DNA from: a bacterium
GTDB taxonomy: Bacteria > Patescibacteriota > Minisyncoccia > Phycocordibacterales > UBA5272
Assembly (NCBI GenBank): GCA_043745785.1
Contig: JAYTSG010000004.1
Location: 570-64,569, forward strand
Length of the DNA stretch: 64,000 nt
Reading direction: 5' to 3'
Notes under the pieces: model-generated
Database searches by the model: none
Told to the model about the DNA's origin: nothing
The model's input: the letters and a program-made list of their open reading frames with translations, nothing else
Part shown: piece after piece, positions 3,526-30,350 of the stretch
How the letters are laid out: the number at the start of each line of letters is the position of its first letter
How positions within the stretch are numbered: position 1 is the stretch's first letter
Program-made: the position numbers and the translations under genes

Positions 3526-3600
3526 AGGTGCTCATTGTAGCAAGAAAAAAAGCCTTGCGGAACTTGTTTTTTTTGAAAAAAATGGCGGTTGAGGAGTGAG

Positions 3601-3634
3601 TTCTAGGTTCTAGGTTCTAGGTTCTAGGTTCTAG
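3601..3634. repeat. Tandem heptamer microsatellite (TTCTAGG)x~5
   Basis: The sequence ttctaggttctaggttctaggttctaggttctag is read directly. It lies ~75 bp upstream of the ATG of the 2908..3525 gene, in its putative promoter region. Confidence 0.9.
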
Positions 3635-4403: not shown

Positions 4404-4771
4404 GATGGATCTTTCTGTGGTCGTTAGGGGGGGTTGAAAAGGGCGGGAAACTTTAGTCTTTACTATATCATAATTAAGTATAAAAGTCAATAGTAAAGTG
4501 CTAGTTTTAGGCTCTCTTTCCTTTAAAAAGCTTTACAAATCAACAATATAGTCAATAATTTTGTGAAATAGTTTTGTTACAAATATACCCTCTTTTATCT
4601 TTTCTTTTACCTCTAAAATAACTCTTATTCAACGAGTAAATCTATTCAGTGGGATGACTAACCTTCACTTCATATGGCTTTAGACTTTTTTCAAAACTCT
4701 GACAGCCCAAGCTATCTCCTTTAGCTCTTTAAGGATAAACTTCACTCATTAACAATAATTTTTCAAAAAAT

Positions 4772-5743: not shown

Positions 5744-6103
5744 TTACTTTAGTTCAACCTTTGCTCCTGCTTCTTCAAGCTTCTTCTTGAAATCTTCAGC
5801 TTCTGCTTTCTTCACGTCTTTCTTGAGATCTACTGGAGCTCCGTCAACAAGATCCTTAGCCTCCTTAAGTCCAAGCGCGAGGACTTCCTTGACTACCTTC
5901 ATCACCGCAATCTTCTGCTCTCCTGGAGCAACAAGATGTACTGTGTAAGAGTCCTTTCCTTCTTCTGCAACAGCTGCTACAGGTGCTGATGCAACTGCTT
6001 GCGCTGAAACACCGAACTTTTCCTCAATCGCTTTAACGAGATCGTTAAGCTCAAGCACTGACATGTTCTCAATTTTTGTGAGAATATCGTTAAACTTTTC
6101 CAT
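5744..6103 (-). CDS. rplL: 50S ribosomal protein L7/L12
   Basis: 119 aa. [32 protein letters not shown]... is followed by an Ala/Glu-rich hinge and [24 protein letters not shown]...[13 protein letters not shown]. Confidence 0.95.
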
Positions 6104-6151: not shown

Positions 6152-6643
6152 CTACGCTACCTTTGTCTTTGCTACTTCAGAGACCGCGATTGCAATACGC
6201 TGCATAGGAGACTTAAGGAGGTACGCAAGCTGAGAGAGAAGCACCTCACGAGAGGGAATGGTCGCAATAGCGGTCATTTCTCCTTGTGACTTGAACTCTC
6301 CATCGAAGATACCACCCATCAGCATGAGAAGTCCCTTGTGAGTTTTTGCAAACTCATAAGAGATTCTCGCTGGTGAGAGAAGGTCTTCACCACAAACAAC
6401 AGCCATCTCACTTGCAACAAGCGGGAAATCTCCTTTGATGCCAACCTCTTTGACTGCACGGTCCCAGAGGGTTTTTTTGACAACAAAGTAAGTACTGTTT
6501 TCGGCGCGGAGAGAGCGACGTAGTTCTTCGGTTGCCTTAACTGGCAAGCCTTTGAAACTAACGTATGCCACTGACTTTGCTCCTTTGAGGGCTTTTGTAT
6601 AACTTTCAATCAGTTCAATCTTCTTTGCTTTTGGTAGTGCCAT
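6152..6643 (-). CDS. rplJ: 50S ribosomal protein L10
   Basis: 163 aa. It lies immediately upstream of rplL. ...VAYVSFKGLPVKATEELRRSLRAENSTYFVVKKTLWDRA... is a typical L10 sequence. Confidence 0.9.
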   Translation of the reverse strand: MALPKAKKIELIESYTKALKGAKSVAYVSFKGLPVKATEELRRSLRAENSTYFVVKKTLWDRAVKEVGIKGDFPLVASEMAVVCGEDLLSPARISYEFAKTHKGLLMLMGGIFDGEFKSQGEMTAIATIPSREVLLSQLAYLLKSPMQRIAIAVSEVAKTKVA

Positions 6644-6844
6644 AGCAAGAGAAAATTAATTTGTAAGTCAAAAGTTCTTGTGAAAAAACTTTTGATAAAC
6701 CGTAAAAACGAGATGATACAAGGGTTTTCCTTGTATTCCTCCGCAGGAATTATGTGCCAGAAAGAATCTTTCGAAACGTTTTGGGACACCTACTTCTTAG
6801 GTTTACAAGAGGTAGTGTACCATAAAACGAAGGAAGATTCAATA

Positions 6845-6930
6845 GACTTCTTTCAAAACTCTCCCATGTCATTCCTGAATTAGCAGATTCACGATTGGCG
6901 CTGAGCAGTTTTGTCATCAAAAGTGAGTCC
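6845..6930. repeat. MITE-like dispersed repeat copy (left end GACTTCTTTCAAAACTCTCCCATGTCATTCCTGAATTAGCA; right end degenerate)
   Basis: It shares GAC(C/T)TCTTTCAAAAG and the CTCCCA..ATTCCTGAAT core with copies at 11153, 28733 and 30006. It lies in the rplJ upstream leader region. Confidence 0.55.
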
Positions 6931-6970
6931 AGAATCTAGGTTTGTATTGTAGAAATGCAATACTAACCTA

Positions 6971-7010
6971 GATCCCCGGTTCATTTGGGTACAAATGCCC
7001 GAGGATGACA
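6971..7010. repeat. 40-bp exact dispersed repeat, copy A (GATCCCCGGTTCATTTGGGTACAAATGCCCGAGGATGACA)
   Basis: Identical 40-mer at 11094..11133. Both copies are preceded by CAATACTAAC. Confidence 0.9.
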
Positions 7011-7055
7011 AATGAAGGGAAATCGTACAGATATACTTCGAAGTCCAAAAACGAC

Positions 7056-7081
7056 AAAAGCGCATCTTACGATGCGCTTTT
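7056..7081. terminator. Bidirectional hairpin terminator (AAAAGCGCATC ttac GATGCGCTTTT)
   Basis: 11-bp perfect stem with A/T runs on both sides. It lies ~85 bp downstream of the stop of the 7167..10283 minus-strand gene. Confidence 0.75.
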
Positions 7082-7166
7082 GTCTAGCTATGCTCTACCC
7101 CCTTAAACTATTTGTTCAGAATATTACTTTCAAAGATATATTCTTTGAAAGTAATTCGTGACGCAA

Positions 7167-10100
7167 TTAGTTCTTGATTGAGTAGCTTGCTGTAGGGAAG
7201 TTGTAAATCTTAACTCCGTCGTATGTTGTGTTACCACCAACAACGTCAGTCCACTGGAAATCATTAGCAGTATTGGTAACCTGTGTTGAAACAGATACCG
7301 TAGCTCCTGATACAACTGTTCCTGTAGGAACAGCGTAAAGACTGAAAGTCTTAGAAGATCCAGCTGAAAGTGAATATGCTGTTGAGAATGAACACGTAGT
7401 AACGGTTGAAGCGATTGTACACGTTACATTAGGAATCGTTGCTGAACCATCTGCGAGTCTTGCTGAAGCGAGAGTAAGAGCTCCTGAGAGTCCTGACGCA
7501 CCGCTTGAGAACTTGAGCTGGTTAACATTGATTGAACCATTAGCGTCTGGAACGACAGTAACTTCGCCAATCTTATTCTCAGCACCAAGGATGAGACCTG
7601 ATTTTTGAACTGTGTCAACAGTAACTGATGGCTTTGATGCAACGAGTGTCATTGCATTTGCTGAAATGGCAGTAGTTGTTGAAACTGTAGTACCATTTCC
7701 TGATGTAGCCTCAATGTAAGTAAGTGTCGTTGTTGAGATGACACCTGCTGTCAGTGATCCACCAGTTGAAGAATTCTTAAAGCCTGAGTACTTAACGGTC
7801 ACTGGTACATCGGTACCGTTGAGACCAATTGCAATACTAAGACCTGTTACCTTTGCAATACCACCTACGACTGAAGCCTGTACGCCATTAACAGTAACTG
7901 ACTCTACTGAATCATTTCCTGTAATAGAGAAACGAAGCTCACGCACGGTTGCGGCACTGTCTTGTGCAGTCTTGATCTTGTAGGTTGCTACATTACTACT
8001 GACGCCACCGACCACAAATTGTGAAACTGGTGATGATGAGACAATAGCAGGGAGACCAAGAGTTGCCGCTGTTGTTGTAATAGCGACACCAAGTCCTGTT
8101 CCAGAGACGGTAGTATTAGTACCTGAAACTGGTCCACGAGTTGAAAGATCAAGAGTTGCTGTAACTGTACCTGAAGTAACACTTCCTATATCTGCATACA
8201 CATCGAATGTCTTTGTTCCGTTCATAGGGACAACAACATCAGAGAATGAAATAACAGTTGAAGAAGCGCTCACATTTCCTACTGGAGTACCAAGAGTCAT
8301 TGAACCAGTCTTAAGTGAAAGGTTAGTGATATTGGTAAGAGGATAACCAGTAGTACTAAGCGTGACTGTCGCGCTGTTTACTACTGCATCTTCCGCTGAA
8401 TCAGCCTGAAGGGTAAATGAACCAATACGTACGTTTGCAGTATTTGGAGCAACGGTAGCTGCAGCAAAACCTGATGTGCGTCCGTAGCTTCCTACACCAG
8501 ATGAAACAGTAAGGTTGTTACCATTAACACCTGAGCTAGCAACACTCACGATCTCGCTTGAGCTTTGACCTTGAGCATTGTTACCTGCACTACTAAGCTG
8601 AGCTAGTACAGAACCTGCTGTATAGCTTACTGATGTAGTTGACTTGATGTCAGCCTTTACCGATACAGTGACTGTCTGTCCTGCAGGGATAATGAGTGAT
8701 GAACCAAGATTATAGGTAAGAGCACCAGATGACCAGTTCTGTGAAGAACTGATTTGTCCACCATTGAGGTAAAGTCCTACGTTTGTAAGACCCGCCGCTG
8801 CTGGAGTCATTGAACCTAGTACTGGAGTGACATTAAGGGTATTAACCTTAACATCTTCTCCGTATGCCTTCATGGTAAATGAACCAATAGTCATGTTCGT
8901 AGCACCGCCAGTTACTTTACTAGCAACGAAAGCTGGGTCGACGTTCACAACCACGGTTCCTTTGTTGACGGTAATCTGTGGATATGCTGAGTTACTACTG
9001 TTAAGAGGTAGCGTTGCGACTGTTGCAGCAACGTTCACTCCAGTAAGATCACGATCTTCGAACATAAGGTCTGCCACGTTCTCAACTGAGAAAGTCATAG
9101 TACGGTTTGAACCTTTTACTATGTCTCCTCTCACATTGATAGTGTGTGAACCAGTGCGAAGGAAGTAAGGCATAGTCCCAAGATCAAAGACAACTTTATT
9201 GTTGTTCATTGCATTGATCATAGCTGGACCTGCAACCTTAGTGCCATCTACATAGAGTGAAAGATTTGCAACAGAGTCAACTGGTGCAGAACCGACAAAC
9301 TTAAAGGTAGCTGCCTTAAAGTAGACATCGCGAACACCTACACTTGCTGTTGCATCCCAAACGTTGTAGTTGGTTGTTCCAGCATCCACGGTGCGAGCAC
9401 CAGTGACAAGAGGGTTGAAGTTGACGCTTGCGGTAGTAATACCAGAAGCGACAGTAAGGGTGTTACCCATTACATTTGTGAAAGTAGAAGCTGCTGAACC
9501 CATAGCAGTGACGCTGTTGAGTTTAACACCAACTGCATTACCTCCAGATGTTGATGAAAGGTCAGCTCTAACAGTAATAGTACGAGTACCACTAACTGAG
9601 AAGAGTCCTGTTCCTGCATTAAAACGGATGTAACCACCTGTTACAACAGAAGCTGCGTCTGTAAGACGAGTGTTTCCATCGTAAAGGTATACGTTGTTAA
9701 GTGTAGAATCTGTAGAAACACCGATTCTTTGTAGTTCGATGTTTGTTACGGTTCCATTACCTTTGAAAGTAAAATCAGCGAGACGAGCTCCTGACTGTCC
9801 TTGTACAAGCTGTCCTGTAGGCTGTGATCCTGAAAGCATTACAGATACTGGACCTGTGTTACCGGTAGGTGGTACTGGATTTCCCGGTGTTGGCACAGGG
9901 TTACCAGTAACTGAACATAGCTGATTGAGGAGACCACGAGTTCCTGCGAACACGTTTCCTGTAGGAGAGTTGATTCCGAGTTCAGCAAGCTGAAGCATCT
10001 GGAATTTATTAACAGCGGCACGAGTAGCTGGACCAAACTTACTGGTTTCCATTCCTGGAGATCCAGCACCTGATTCAGCGACACGTGTCTGAGGGTACAT

Positions 10101-10283
10101 GTTAAGAACTTTTTGAAGATTCATGACTTGTACTCCTTTTGAACCCATCTTCATGTTCGTATTGAACACGTAAGAACAGTTCATGGTTGGAAGGGCGAGA
10201 GCTGCAGATGCTGTTGAAGCACCAACGATAGCTCCTCCTAGGGCTACTGCAATTGCAGCGGCCTTGATTGAGAGTTTACTCAT
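7167..10283 (-). CDS. Large secreted cell-surface protein: Sec signal peptide, N-terminal peptidoglycan-binding (PGBD-like) domain, Pro-rich linker, then ~900 aa of repetitive Thr/Ser/Val/Gly/Asn-rich beta-sandwich (Ig-like) repeats
   Basis: 1038 aa. The signal peptide is MSKLSIKAAAIAVALGGAIVGASTASA. The PG_binding_1-like segment is GSKGVQVMNLQKVLN...SKFGPATRAAVNKFQ. The linker is NPVPTPGNPVPPTGNTG. The remainder is low-complexity repeats, so the many antisense ORFs in the track are artefacts. Confidence 0.8.
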   Translation of the reverse strand: MSKLSIKAAAIAVALGGAIVGASTASAALALPTMNCSYVFNTNMKMGSKGVQVMNLQKVLNMYPQTRVAESGAGSPGMETSKFGPATRAAVNKFQMLQLAELGINSPTGNVFAGTRGLLNQLCSVTGNPVPTPGNPVPPTGNTGPVSVMLSGSQPTGQLVQGQSGARLADFTFKGNGTVTNIELQRIGVSTDSTLNNVYLYDGNTRLTDAASVVTGGYIRFNAGTGLFSVSGTRTITVRADLSSTSGGNAVGVKLNSVTAMGSAASTFTNVMGNTLTVASGITTASVNFNPLVTGARTVDAGTTNYNVWDATASVGVRDVYFKAATFKFVGSAPVDSVANLSLYVDGTKVAGPAMINAMNNNKVVFDLGTMPYFLRTGSHTINVRGDIVKGSNRTMTFSVENVADLMFEDRDLTGVNVAATVATLPLNSSNSAYPQITVNKGTVVVNVDPAFVASKVTGGATNMTIGSFTMKAYGEDVKVNTLNVTPVLGSMTPAAAGLTNVGLYLNGGQISSSQNWSSGALTYNLGSSLIIPAGQTVTVSVKADIKSTTSVSYTAGSVLAQLSSAGNNAQGQSSSEIVSVASSGVNGNNLTVSSGVGSYGRTSGFAAATVAPNTANVRIGSFTLQADSAEDAVVNSATVTLSTTGYPLTNITNLSLKTGSMTLGTPVGNVSASSTVISFSDVVVPMNGTKTFDVYADIGSVTSGTVTATLDLSTRGPVSGTNTTVSGTGLGVAITTTAATLGLPAIVSSSPVSQFVVGGVSSNVATYKIKTAQDSAATVRELRFSITGNDSVESVTVNGVQASVVGGIAKVTGLSIAIGLNGTDVPVTVKYSGFKNSSTGGSLTAGVISTTTLTYIEATSGNGTTVSTTTAISANAMTLVASKPSVTVDTVQKSGLILGAENKIGEVTVVPDANGSINVNQLKFSSGASGLSGALTLASARLADGSATIPNVTCTIASTVTTCSFSTAYSLSAGSSKTFSLYAVPTGTVVSGATVSVSTQVTNTANDFQWTDVVGGNTTYDGVKIYNFPTASYSIKN

Positions 10284-10928
10284 AATTTTTTTGAAGTGAT
10301 AAGATTTTTCTAACTCGTTTCTCTTTATAGAGTCAGCATTGTTTTTACTTGTGTAGTTTCGACATAACTAGTAAAAACAAACTAAATGACAAAACGAAGG
10401 GGTCGCTTATGCCAAAATACGAAGCGTTTTTATTTGCGTCACTATTCTGTTTTCAACGATCACTTTTATTCTGCCTTTTAAGATACTCTATAAATAACGT
10501 ATCTCAAATACCAGAGGACGCTCTCAAACAGAGACGTCTACAAGAGAGTATAGAGCTTCTTAAGAAAACTGCAAGGTTATTCCAAAATAATTTGAATATC
10601 ACAACTCTTCATCTTCTCAAAAAACTAATTTACAACTCTTGAAGTACATACAGTACCTAGAGGTAAGTATACCACAGAGTGGTCAAAAAGTCTACAAATA
10701 TAAAAGCTTTTTCCTCTTTTTGTATAAAAAGTAAGCTCAGTAGATTGAGGACTTTTCTTGACTCTGTGCGTATGTACGTCCCTCACAGATAAGGATACGA
10801 GAGAAATGAAGGATTTGGTTCACGAGAGACGTAAAGACATGAGGCCAAGATACCAGCGTCATACGTGAATGTGGTCATTCAGCGTCATTCGTATCTGGTG
10901 ATACAAATGATGGGCAGCACGCAACCCT

Positions 10929-11075
10929 AGTGTCATTCTGGAAGGGCTTTGTACACAAAGAACTATCCGGAATCCAGGTTGGTATTCCAGACATGAAATG
11001 CAGTTGAGTACTTTACAACCTCATTCAGATCTGGATTCCGGATATTTTTGAATACAAAAATTCCAGAATGACATA
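10929..11075. repeat. Palindromic (hairpin-forming) inverted-repeat element with nested IRs GTCATTCTGGA...TCCAGAATGAC and ATCCGGAATCCAGGT...ATCTGGATTCCGGAT
   Basis: The nested inverted repeats are read directly. They are related by motif (AACTATCCGG[A/T]ATCCAGGT) to the element at 12555-12800. Confidence 0.7.
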
Positions 11076-11093
11076 AAACTCAATACTAACATG

Positions 11094-11133
11094 GATCCCC
11101 GGTTCATTTGGGTACAAATGCCCGAGGATGACA
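11094..11133. repeat. 40-bp exact dispersed repeat, copy B
   Basis: Identical to 6971..7010. Confidence 0.9.
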
Positions 11134-11152
11134 CGCGAGGAGTAATACATGA

Positions 11153-11231
11153 GACTTCTTTCAAAAGTCTCCCACGTTATTCCTGAATCAGCCCCTAGGA
11201 CAACTTTGGTAATGAGGGTTTTGAAAGAGGT
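11153..11231. repeat. MITE-like palindromic element (TIRs GACTTCTTTCAAAAG / CTTTTGAAAGAGGT)
   Basis: ~79 bp. Terminal inverted repeats and an internal CTCCCACGTTATTCCTGAAT core are shared with copies at 6845, 28733 and 30006. Confidence 0.7.
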
Positions 11232-11453
11232 TTAGTGTATCTCACCTCTATTTCTCTCTAAAATAGAACCTGTAGCCCTTTATCGAAACTTACTACTATA
11301 TACCTAATGAGTCTCCCCTCAGTAAACTGTTCCTTCACTCACTCCATTCGTTATCTACAGGGAATGTTAGGGAACCAATGGTTTTCTAAACCCTTCCTTG
11401 TGGAACACCTTCTCAGCAGAGCTGTAGGGAATAGAACAAGTAAAGAGAGAGCT

Positions 11454-12290
11454 CTAACGAAGCACATATCTACTCCATCTTTTTTCACCAATTCTTTCAA
11501 GGACATGGTCAAAGACAAGTGTATTGAGTTCTCTCTGTATTGTTTTTTCACTACAACCTTTTATCTTGCTTGATATGTCTTTTATACTCACATCTACACC
11601 TACAGAGAAGAGTCCCAATATTTGTTCCCTTCTACTCTGCTTTCTAGCTTTAAATATTCCCGCTGGAATTTTTCTTTCGATTACCATTCTTTGATACTGA
11701 TAGGGAGAGCTAACATTTTCTTTGTTTGTTTTATCATCTAATTTCATCGTATAAGCTTCTCCTGTTGTCAGAGCTTCACTCTTTTGTGTAGGTTTAGTTA
11801 TCAAATTTTGATCAGCTTTTTCTTCTACGAAAACTGCTCCAATACCTTCTTCCTTAGGGACAAATGTTGGAGGTAACCCTACAGAATGATTCTTTGCCTC
11901 GGTGAGCACTATGTCATCTTCTTTTAAAAGAAGGGCACTCGAAAAAGTCGGGCGTCTTTTTTGGAGAGCGTTACTAAGGACATTGAACCCTTCGACGAGA
12001 AGTCTTCCGTTCATCTCAGAGACAGTCCCTGAGAAGGTTGCAACATGCAGAAGTGAGACAACTTCTCTTACTTCATTTAAAGACAAAGAGTATTCACGAG
12101 CAATGTCACTTGTTTCAGAAGAGGCAACTTTAGTGACATGTCCAAGTATACTCAAAGCTGAAGATCGAAGTCTATTTTTTATAGGATCTTGAGCACTAAT
12201 TAAGTCAGTAACAAGATAAAGGCCCGTCACTAAACGCTCTGTTTTCTGTGCTATCAAGACTTCCTGTTGTGTGTTTTTTGTCTCTGACAT
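11454..12290 (-). CDS. Putative transcriptional regulator: novel N-terminal domain plus C-terminal winged-helix HTH (DeoR/ArsR-like)
   Basis: 278 aa with an ATG start. The C-terminus ...RREQILGLFS...VSIKDISSKIKGCSEKTIQRELNTLVFDHVLERIGEKRWSRYVL is an HTH followed by a wing. The gene is flanked by 1.2 kb and 0.75 kb of repeat-rich non-coding DNA. Confidence 0.5.
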   Translation of the reverse strand: MSETKNTQQEVLIAQKTERLVTGLYLVTDLISAQDPIKNRLRSSALSILGHVTKVASSETSDIAREYSLSLNEVREVVSLLHVATFSGTVSEMNGRLLVEGFNVLSNALQKRRPTFSSALLLKEDDIVLTEAKNHSVGLPPTFVPKEEGIGAVFVEEKADQNLITKPTQKSEALTTGEAYTMKLDDKTNKENVSSPYQYQRMVIERKIPAGIFKARKQSRREQILGLFSVGVDVSIKDISSKIKGCSEKTIQRELNTLVFDHVLERIGEKRWSRYVLR

Positions 12291-12524: not shown

Positions 12525-12800
12525 ATTCTGTATCTGTATCTGTGTCTGTGTCATACCGGAAGGATTTTGTACTCAAAAACTATCCGGTATCCAGGTCTAT
12601 AATTGTAGAGAGTATCCCCCTAGAAAAAATGCCAGTACGTTAAACATTCACACTGGGTGCGTGATTACTCTGGTTTGACCTATCGTTAAAGTCAAAACCT
12701 GGATCCTGGATATGATGAGTACATCATATCCAGGATGGTGCACTCGTTATTCTGGAATGGCATGCAAGATACTCAGTGCGACTGGAGACTGGAGACTGGA
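12525..12800. repeat. Composite repeat region: (TCTGTA/TCTGTG) tandem run, inverted ATCCGGTATCCAGGT / ACCTGGATCCTGGATAT / CATATCCAGGATGG motifs, and a (GACTGGA)x3 tandem run
   Basis: Read directly. It shares the ATCCGG(A/T)ATCCAGGT and TTCTGGAA(G/T)GGC motifs with the element at 10929-11075. Confidence 0.65.
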
Positions 12801-13058
12801 ATACTTGATTCTGACATACTAGACCTCTTTCAGATGTCTTATGTATACATGTGTAAACATCTAGAATACATAGAGCTGTAATAGTGCTTAGCTATATGTA
12901 TTTGCAAACCAAATGGGTGACTCAACTCCGCGAGGAATTATGTGACCACATAACTGAAATAACTGACGAAATGAGCTTTATTGTCACCACAAAAATGTCT
13001 CATATTTTGCTATACTAGAAGCAACTCATTATTAAAATAAAAACGTTTGACTACACAT

Positions 13059-28604: not shown

Positions 28605-28732
28605 GCAAATAGTATACCACTTTGGTTTATCATTAATAATTCTAGATCTTCCGTCATTTATTGTTAATGAGCAGAGAAAGTATTTTTATATTTTGAACTA
28701 AATCATATTTTTTTCTTTCTTTTTATACAATA

Positions 28733-28890
28733 GACCTCTTTCAAAAGTCTCAAAACTTTCCTGCATTAGGATTCCTGCGAAGACAGGCCCAAGACATGAA
28801 TTTGATAATTCAGAATACAGTATGTATTATAATACTATTTGATTTCAATTTTTACTTAGAGTGATAGCAGAGAGGCTTTTGAAAGAGCTC
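28733..28890. repeat. MITE-like palindromic element, longest copy (TIRs GACCTCTTTCAAAAGTCTC / AGGCTTTTGAAAGAGCTC)
   Basis: ~158 bp. The ends match the family at 6845, 11153 and 30006. The internal ATTCCTG...AATTCAGAAT motif is shared. Confidence 0.7.
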
Positions 28891-29159
28891 TACTACTTTC
28901 CAGAATCATCAAGAAATCTAGCTTCGAAGAGTTAGAAATAACCACAATTTCTAATAAGACAAATCTGAATTTACCTTTATTCCTTCCTACGCTATATGCA
29001 ACCCGCAAGAGTTATCTTAGGGGTTGACCGTCTCATCTGCCTTGTTCTAAGAGTTGTGGGAGCTTTTTGAACTACTGAGAAAGGTCTAGGTCTTACAAAA
29101 CTAATTCTATTTCTTTTTAGTTGCATGCCGAACAACTTTGAAAATATCTCAACTAAACA

Positions 29160-29795: not shown

Positions 29796-30005
29796 GGGGA
29801 TATTTTACCACAAAAATGAGAAACAAAAAATGTTGTTTCAATGAGCTGTGAGTTACTAATAAGTCTTCGTCTTAAAGTTTCTTTTTCAGAATGAAAACCC
29901 CTTAGCACAACTAAAATCTAGTCGCGCGCGTAGTTTAAAAGAAACACACATTTAGTGCTACTACTCAGAGGAAAAGCACTCTACCTTTTTACAACACTTA
30001 TAATA

Positions 30006-30092
30006 GACTTCTTTCAAAACCACCCCCCTATCATTCTTGAATTGGGTAATTCAGGGATGATAACTTTGTTTGTTAGGGTTTTGAAAGAGGTC
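30006..30092. repeat. MITE-like palindromic element, near-perfect copy (16-bp TIR GAC(T/C)TCTTTCAAAACC)
   Basis: GACTTCTTTCAAAACC...GGTTTTGAAAGAGGTC with an inner IR CATTCTTGAATT / AATTCAGGGATG. 87 bp. Confidence 0.8.
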
Positions 30093-30350
30093 TATTAAAC
30101 TGTCTTCCTCTAGTGTCCTTCGCTTGCGTTAGTAAACTATCTAAAAACTCTCCGCAAGAAACAGTAACTCTCACTGTGAGGGAGCAGGTCTATCGATGAT
30201 CATCGTAAAACAAATTTGATGTACACTAAACATCCCAGGACTTACGCCACGGGGTATTATGCGCGAATAAATCGCTCCACGATATGTTATGAGCTTGTTT
30301 TATGTCTATAAAATACTGTGTTTTAATGAAGAGAAACTTTTTGAAAAACA

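Follow-up and report, generated by a model that had tools for sequence, protein, structure and literature searches.

In Neisseria, the short repeat dRS3 (ATTCCC-N8-GGGAAT) and its accompanying spacers form the arrays called NIMEs, which are present in about 700 copies per meningococcal genome, lie beside surface-protein genes and are generated by a factor that is unknown (PMC1797815; PMC3898611; PMC9778887). NIMEs have been stated not to occur outside Neisseria (PMC1797815). Here we describe hairpin repeats, with the dRS3/NIME repeats as their closest described relatives, in a 64,000-nucleotide stretch of DNA from a bacterium of the Candidate Phyla Radiation (CPR; contig JAYTSG010000004.1, positions 570 to 64,569; hereafter the window). 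The element under study is an exactly repeated 40-nt sequence, GATCCCCGGTTCATTTGGGTACAAATGCCCGAGGATGACA (the 40-mer). In our judgement the 40-mer is probably a recently copied, non-autonomous member of a hairpin-repeat family that is associated with a small GIY-YIG nuclease, and we propose this nuclease as the mobiliser of the family.

The window contains exactly two copies of the 40-mer, both on the plus strand, at 6971-7010 and 11094-11133. In good agreement with the original prediction, they lie 4.1 kb apart and are preceded by a common sequence, CAATACTAAC, which opens both copies of a shared block that really extends over 53 nt with two mismatches (6958-7010 and 11081-11133); beyond this block the flanking DNA of the two copies is unrelated. 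No further match with up to three mismatches was found in the window, and none in 100 dinucleotide-preserving shuffles. Both copies are situated in non-coding DNA. A coding reading was tried and rejected: the repeat is open in two frames (e.g. a 29-codon open reading frame (ORF) from the ATG of copy 2), this ATG is missing in copy 1, and the context is plausible for neither copy.

Read on the minus strand, the 40-mer consists of 5'-TGTC followed by ATCCTCGG-g-CATTTG-tacc-CAAATG-aa-CCGGGGAT and a final C. It folds as a hairpin (DNA fold -10.4 kcal/mol, z = -3.6) of 35 nt with an outer stem of 8 bp and an inner stem of 6 bp; no T-run follows on its 3' side. Its reverse complement aligns base for base with three further sequences in the window, namely the two arms of doublet 2 and the left one of doublet 3 (see below), and the general layout of such an arm is 5'-TGTCAT(Y)C, stem-loop, G(R)ATC(Y)AG-3'. 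A covariance model of the arm (R1) detects six strong arms in the window, all confined to 6.9-12.8 kb, in the three successive spacers that surround a surface-protein gene, and no strong arm in the remaining 58 kb. Overall, the arms of the window make up three inverted doublets, whose inner spacers measure about 8-100 nt, while copy 2 stands by itself as a singlet:

6911-7012: element A, a 102-nt palindromic doublet (RNA fold z = -4.9, DNA fold z = -7.6)
6971-7010, minus strand: 40-mer of copy 1, an intact hairpin arm (R1 match 6966-7013, 58.9 bits, E = 4e-16)
10931-11073: doublet 2, 143 nt, palindromic (fold z = -8.6)
11081-11136, minus strand: copy 2, a singlet arm with the 40-mer at 11094-11133 (R1 match 11089-11136, 53.1 bits)
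12549-12762: doublet 3, ~214 nt, with an extra outer TGCCATTCCAGAA end

Element A is bounded by a 9-bp terminal inverted repeat (TTTGTCATC/GATGACAAA) and has a central hairpin (CTAGGTTTGTATTG/CAATACTAACCTAG). Copy 1 is its right arm; the left arm (6911-6950) retains TGTCATC and GAATCTAGGTT and has lost its hairpin. Copy 2 has 13 nt of inner sequence in common with element A, is devoid of a partner arm and lies 7 nt from doublet 2, the terminal inverted repeat of which is 13 bp long (TGTCATTCTGGAA/TTCCAGAATGACA). R1 scores the arms of doublet 2 at 54.9 bits (10928-10979, plus strand) and 68.4 bits (11029-11076, minus strand), and those of doublet 3 at 62.2 bits (left, 12546-12596, plus strand) and 45.3 bits (right, 12697-12743, minus strand).

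The family pattern has five matches in the window and none in shuffles. To follow covariation we aligned 12 arms from the window and its relatives: 93.8% of the cells in both stems are paired, and 8 of the 14 pairs have changed on both sides (e.g. C-G/U-A/A-U at one position and G-C/C-G/A-U at another). These values were reached in 0 of 500 shuffles, and sliding the partner column brought pairing to 24-63%. Strand-specific G.T wobble was considered as a sign of an RNA or single-strand function, and G.T wobbles as well as A/C mismatches turned out to be present on both strands across the arms. The termini of the arms (5' TGTCAT, 3' GRATCYAG) are conserved in sequence and the stems as structure only, a pattern that would be expected of a hairpin recognised by a protein.

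The exact 40-mer was not found in the genome contig collection, nor was its 24-mer core in the metagenome contig collection or its 26-mer core in the viral contig collection. The family pattern has five loci in the genome contig collection, which come from the metagenome-assembled genome (MAG) that gave L020 (the closest relative carrying the arm family), one Liptonbacteria MAG and one other contig only, and has no match in the metagenome contig collection. R1 detects shorter-stem relatives as well, e.g. TGTCATCCC-loop-GGGATCCAG, which comes directly behind the rplL terminator in relatives with a 93%-identical ribosomal protein L10. The 40-mer copies are, therefore, not an isolated pair: the diverged arms in the window and its relatives are what the original prediction had named as the sign of an ordinary repeat family. 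The same prediction had attributed the identity of the two copies to recent copying or to constraint. Recent copying is the part that stands, together with constraint in the form of a conserved TGTCAT terminus and a covarying hairpin; the suggested small-RNA seed does not. We regard the two identical copies as a young pair of one subfamily that originates from recent copying, be it transposition-like insertion or gene conversion.

Some loci hold tandem arrays composed of truncated arm ends only (L031 185-450; L043 2040-2160; L066 200-260 and 840-900), with units such as (GGGGATGACAAAGTRTAGNTT)n and (TGTCATTCTGAGTATTTTTCCTT)n. These arrays point to recurrent copying, either abortive or targeted at the ends.

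L020 has two paralogous genes for 94-aa GIY-YIG proteins (PF01541), and both are flanked by arms of the window type: one arm lies 36-37 nt upstream of each start, more arms are located downstream, and an inverted arm closes the unit. The protein has more than 2000 homologs, with 60-70% identity among the matches listed; the sources of these include Patescibacteria, Omnitrophota, Rhizobiales and Flavobacteria. Full-length matches of the protein in viruses are only ~38-40% identical, with one 21-residue segment at 67%, and are uninformative; no PDB sequence matched the nuclease, and its only NCBIfam match, to a group I intron endonuclease family, is sub-threshold. We compared the gene contexts of 12 GIY-YIG loci in 11 lineages, i.e. 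L020 and ten further lineages with homologs ~45-70% identical to the L020 protein. Arms adjoin the GIY-YIG gene in all 12 loci, which are spread over CPR bacteria, Alpha-, Beta- and Gammaproteobacteria, Flavobacteria and Cyanobacteria, and in seven of the eight loci with measured gaps, Aeromonas being one of the eight, the distance is 0-52 nt on both sides. The gene-bearing units are about 370-450 bp in size. The contexts in the further lineages are as follows:

P0164: arm 16 nt upstream of the ATG; stop codon overlapped by an inverted arm
P0237 (Patescibacteria): gaps of 43 and 42 nt; unit between rpsQ and rplN
P0163: upstream arm 246 nt and downstream arm 19 nt from the gene; arrays in which the number of arms varies among samples
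Bradyrhizobium: arms 14 and 11 nt away
Olleya: arms 4 and 0 nt away
N. gonorrhoeae: GIY-YIG homolog within a repeat (NIME) array
Planktothrix, Aeromonas, Azospirillum and Novosphingobium: arms on both sides; Azospirillum unit between sufB and sufC

Apart from GIY-YIG, no gene is common to the 12 loci, and no Y1, IS110 or other transposase was found within 0.5-1.5 kb of their arms. In two cases, the gene and its arms interrupt an operon that is otherwise continuous, namely rpsQ-rplN of a Patescibacteria MAG (L050 1378-1983) and sufB-sufC on an Azospirillum replicon (L068 357-975). The gonococcal homolog (L065 690-705), unannotated in record NZ_CP119142.1, lacks an in-frame ATG immediately before its aligned part, which may reflect truncation or the use of a different start codon. 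Gene-less doublets beside the Bradyrhizobium and Olleya genes hold the last ~45-50 nt of the GIY-YIG ORF and are therefore internal-deletion derivatives of the gene-bearing unit. Judged from these sequences, the gene-bearing unit and the gene-less doublets would stand in the classical relation of an autonomous element to its miniature copies. Within the doublets of the window, tblastn detected no remnants of GIY-YIG or NYN genes.

The window is a piece of chromosome, and the names of its L10 homologs point to Paceibacterota/Parcubacteria. The genes around the 40-mer pair, which further include ftsK and recA, are arranged as follows:

5744-6103, minus strand: rplL
6152-6643, minus strand: rplJ
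7167-10283, minus strand: gene for a 1038-aa secreted, repeat-rich surface protein, with a strong terminator at 7053-7084
11454-12290, minus strand: gene for a 278-aa protein

Copy 1 is located between the terminator of the 1038-aa gene and the rplJ promoter, and copy 2 in the 1.17-kb spacer between the 278-aa and 1038-aa genes. The two copies are, accordingly, direct repeats on either side of the 1038-aa gene, oriented like the flanking genes. Logan metagenome contigs from the same organism end exactly at the edges of the 40-mer (L010 corresponds to window 6981-11123, and L005, L006, L008 and L009 stop at 11104), which is how exact repeats show up in a 31-mer assembly graph.

Next to this, we followed the orthologous loci in relatives. 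Those with a 93%-identical L10 share the gene order, the terminator, the L10 leader and the rplJ promoter (TTGAAT/TTGAAA-17-TAnnnT) with the window; arms are absent there, and between terminator and promoter these relatives differ, with an NYN-domain gene, other ORFs or a short spacer. L024-L026 (84% identical L10) likewise keep these elements and the order of the genes, and carry no arm anywhere. In L020 (79% identical L10) the surface-protein gene lies between a 279-aa gene and rplJ, the same place as in L024, and in both it is without flanking arms at the window positions. Given this synteny with arm-less relatives, the 40-mer copies are neither att sites of a cassette nor a conserved regulatory site. 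The arms are better described as apparent insertions, or apparent survivors of deletions, in a hypervariable spacer. Since no tRNA or tmRNA gene is present in the window, the 40-mer is not a tRNA-linked att site either. The surface protein is 63-64% identical to its orthologues and the 278-aa protein 39%, compared with 77-84% for L10, L12 and FtsK; as in Neisseria, it is the fast-evolving genes that the arms flank.

The spacer from the surface-gene terminator to the rplJ promoter is itself an insertion hot spot (window 6828-7052; L014 485-979; L020 7947-9504), which holds the repeats in the window, an NYN-domain gene in L014 and L015, small ORFs in L012 and L018, and a 206-aa gene along with a GIY-YIG gene in L020. 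On the other side, the surface-protein gene is preceded by a promoter-like site, TAGACT-17-TATACT, and by a 5' leader of ~375 nt (minus strand, 10284-10694) that is 88% identical to the leaders in L020 and L024, though the proteins are 63-64% identical. This leader has no Rfam match and may be an undescribed leader RNA.

A second palindromic family, MITE1, accompanies the pair. As initially noted, a copy of this element, likened to a miniature inverted-repeat transposable element (MITE), lies near each 40-mer in differing relative order: upstream of copy 1 (6837-6884) and downstream of copy 2 (11145-11192), with 85% identity between the two. MITE1 belongs to a different family from the 40-mer arms and clusters in the same places; its left half has a weak arm-like R1 match (6864-6941, 13.5 bits). 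The two sites next to the pair are:

6843-6884, plus strand: MITE1 left half, directly abutting the rplJ -35 box; TGTCATTCCTGAAT and a short hairpin
11151-11237: complete MITE1 hairpin, downstream of copy 2 at a distance of 18 nt (fold z = -5.0)

Together with these, MITE1-family sites in the window lie at 4681-4700, 12818-12839, 28731-28895 and 30004-30096. The element has an outer inverted repeat, TAGACYTCTTTCAAAAS/SGTTTTGAAAGAGGTCTA, and a core in the form of a mini palindrome, T(G/A)TCATTC-hairpin-GGATGAYA. Four Logan contigs all end at 6870, and a 31-mer of the MITE1 family is therefore repeated elsewhere in the genome. Elsewhere in the window, we noted a (GTTCTAG)5 microsatellite at 3598-3634, in the spacer upstream of a 176-aa ORF, and, at 33.7-39.7 kb, a series of genes whose products begin like type IV pilins (GFTLIE...) and contain internal repeat units of ~41 aa; this series is seen as direct-repeat families D1-D5.

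How would such arms spread? We infer the role of the nuclease from the company that its gene keeps. Structure specificity is known from GIY-YIG enzymes such as Slx1 and UvrC, and for this reason we suggest that the nuclease would recognise the TGTCAT-hairpin ends in extruded or single-stranded DNA. It would then nick at the arm ends, and the nick could set off repair or replication that copies the unit as well as, in trans, gene-less arms. The arms of the window would depend on a copy of the nuclease gene elsewhere in the genome, or else would be orphans; presumably the source genome encodes a GIY-YIG gene outside the 64-kb window. The exact identity of the pair would reflect recent copying or conversion within one subfamily.

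Several observations weigh against assigning the 40-mer to a nuclease-driven family. The window has no GIY-YIG gene (tblastn), and the exact subfamily of the 40-mer is known from two copies only. No target-site duplication is visible at the three doublets, and no clean empty site can be aligned, the flanking spacers being too diverged. The 12 GIY-YIG loci were picked by hand and are not a random sample; among them, the downstream arms of gene 1 in L020 are direct and not inverted, and the upstream arm of P0163 is 246 nt away from the gene. The 94-aa GIY-YIG domain comes without a recognisable DNA-binding domain. Finally, dRS3 is acted on by a different enzyme, a phage recombinase (PMC1797815).

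The last point leads to the alternative that survives best, namely that the arms are REP/REPIN- or dRS3-type repeats moved by another enzyme (a Y1 RAYT or an IS110/Piv-type recombinase), with GIY-YIG as a passenger or as a homing gene that targets the arms. A conserved 5' motif with a hairpin, in singlets and inverted doublets, is indeed REP/REPIN-like, dRS3 is a documented target of the phage-encoded recombinase that integrates the filamentous Nf phage (PMC1797815; PMC3898611), and such an enzyme would sit well with a window that lacks the nuclease gene. We nevertheless consider it unlikely. No Y1, IS110 or other transposase, tnpA/tnpB, phage or recombinase gene was seen among the window ORFs scanned, no transposase lies near the arms of the 12 loci, and GIY-YIG is the sole gene that these loci share. 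Moreover, the presence of the 3' end of the GIY-YIG ORF in gene-less doublets fits an origin from a gene-bearing unit and not insertion of the gene into an empty doublet.

It is very unlikely that the 40-mer is instead a structured element with a function for the host, maintained by purifying selection as a stabiliser or terminator at mRNA 3' ends, as a small RNA or as a site for a host protein. Its hairpin is stable and covarying, both copies are oriented as the flanking genes are, with copy 1 just after a terminator, and an influence on neighbouring genes has been proposed for REP and NIME arrays (PMC1797815). Set against this, the element is missing from the orthologous spacers of relatives with a 79-93% identical L10, and arms exist in both orientations and as inverted doublets. 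The hairpin is not followed by a T-run, and the Rfam search that had been recommended gave no match: none at gathering score in Rfam 15 for the window and 10 related loci, and chance-level matches only in E-value scans of both 40-mer sites. The same arms are, furthermore, found beside the nuclease gene in unrelated phyla, where they interrupt operons. Least credible of all is a one-off local duplication, or a pair of attL/attR recombination sites of a 4.1-kb cassette with the surface-protein gene: the copies are direct repeats around the 1038-aa gene and L010 spans exactly the inter-repeat segment, but we rejected both versions by synteny, since in L020 and L024 the surface-protein gene has the same neighbours, the 278/279-aa gene and rplJ, without such repeats, four more homologous arms are nearby, including one doublet outside the 4.1-kb segment, and the flanks beyond 53 nt are unrelated.

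On its own, the pair is just a young repeat of an ordinary kind, and the interest lies in the family behind it. REP/NIME-style hairpin repeats are present in a reduced CPR genome, and dRS3-type arms are not confined to Neisseria. The ~94-aa GIY-YIG nuclease, very widespread and uncharacterised, is a concrete candidate for the partner of the arms, which bears on two questions: what generates NIME/dRS3 arrays, and what the ~94-aa GIY-YIG family does. If the nuclease does mobilise the arms, the units would rank with the smallest mobile units known to bear a gene, and would provide a new enzymatic basis for the spread of hairpin repeats. On the practical side, CPR genomes assembled from short reads come apart exactly at the arm edges. 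In a limited literature search, which is no proof of novelty, we found neither a link of GIY-YIG genes with REP, MITE or dRS3-type repeats nor an account of MITEs or REP/NIME-type repeats in CPR bacteria; the NIME papers PMC9778887 and PMC3898611 do not mention a GIY-YIG link.

How do the arms and their gene-bearing units compare with known mobile systems? They differ from IS200/IS605-derived PATEs and TnpB omega-RNA ends, which are asymmetric and have subterminal hairpins in place of terminal inverted repeats, in having symmetric inverted repeats as ends, no tnpA/tnpB and no Rfam match. With GIY-YIG homing endonucleases such as I-TevI and the Seg proteins they share the catalytic domain PF01541 and insertion of the gene into conserved operons; however, the nuclease is ~94 aa long, has no DNA-binding domain and is not in an intron, and the unit is bounded by hairpin inverted repeats with many gene-less copies alongside. 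Classical MITEs (Correia elements and DDE insertion sequence derivatives) resemble the doublets in their terminal inverted repeats (9-13 bp here), size of 100-215 bp, intergenic location, presence/absence polymorphism and internal deletion from a gene-bearing unit. The dissimilarities are that there is no DDE transposase partner, that target-site duplication is not detectable here, that each arm is a hairpin, and that singlet arms and tandem arm arrays exist; the only gene-bearing relative carries the GIY-YIG nuclease.

The likeness to REP/REPIN-RAYT systems consists in a short conserved 5' motif and hairpin, singlets and inverted doublets, non-autonomy, and a single gene bracketed by inverted arms. 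Here, however, the bracketed gene is GIY-YIG and not HUH/Y1, the motif is TGTCAT and not GTAG, and the host is a CPR bacterium; no cognate Y1 (HUH) RAYT gene was detected among the window ORFs scanned or in any GIY-YIG locus. The arms resemble dRS3/NIME in being short, GC-richer hairpins in which the stem ends are conserved and the centre varies, and in flanking 50-150-bp spacers in intergenic arrays, often beside fast-evolving surface-protein genes (PMC1797815). In the window, they likewise cluster in the spacers around the 1038-aa surface-protein gene. They are distinct from dRS3 in the strict sense: the window has no better-than-chance ATTCCC-N8-GGGAAT match at up to two mismatches, and the stem ends ATCCTCGG/CCGGGGAT of the 40-mer are 19 nt apart in a 35-nt hairpin with an added inner stem. 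As the window arms do not match the pattern, we do not file the 40-mer as a strict dRS3. In its gonococcal context, dRS3 reads GTCATTCCC-N8-GGGAATCC, with the same termini as the window arms, and one dRS3 directly follows the stop codon of the gonococcal GIY-YIG homolog. The literal dRS3 pattern is also fitted by arms beside GIY-YIG genes in non-neisserial loci (L042-L050 and L067), as it is in the gonococcal L065. These parallels raise a wider proposal, which we put forward tentatively, as a serious possibility that stops short of being probable: a pan-bacterial class of minimal mobile units of ~370-450 bp, with a ~94-aa GIY-YIG nuclease as the sole gene between TGTCAT-hairpin-ATCCAG arms. 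Gene-less arms, doublets and arrays, including dRS3/NIME, would be the non-autonomous progeny of these units, in a partnership akin to that of REPIN and RAYT, with GIY-YIG in the place of Y1.

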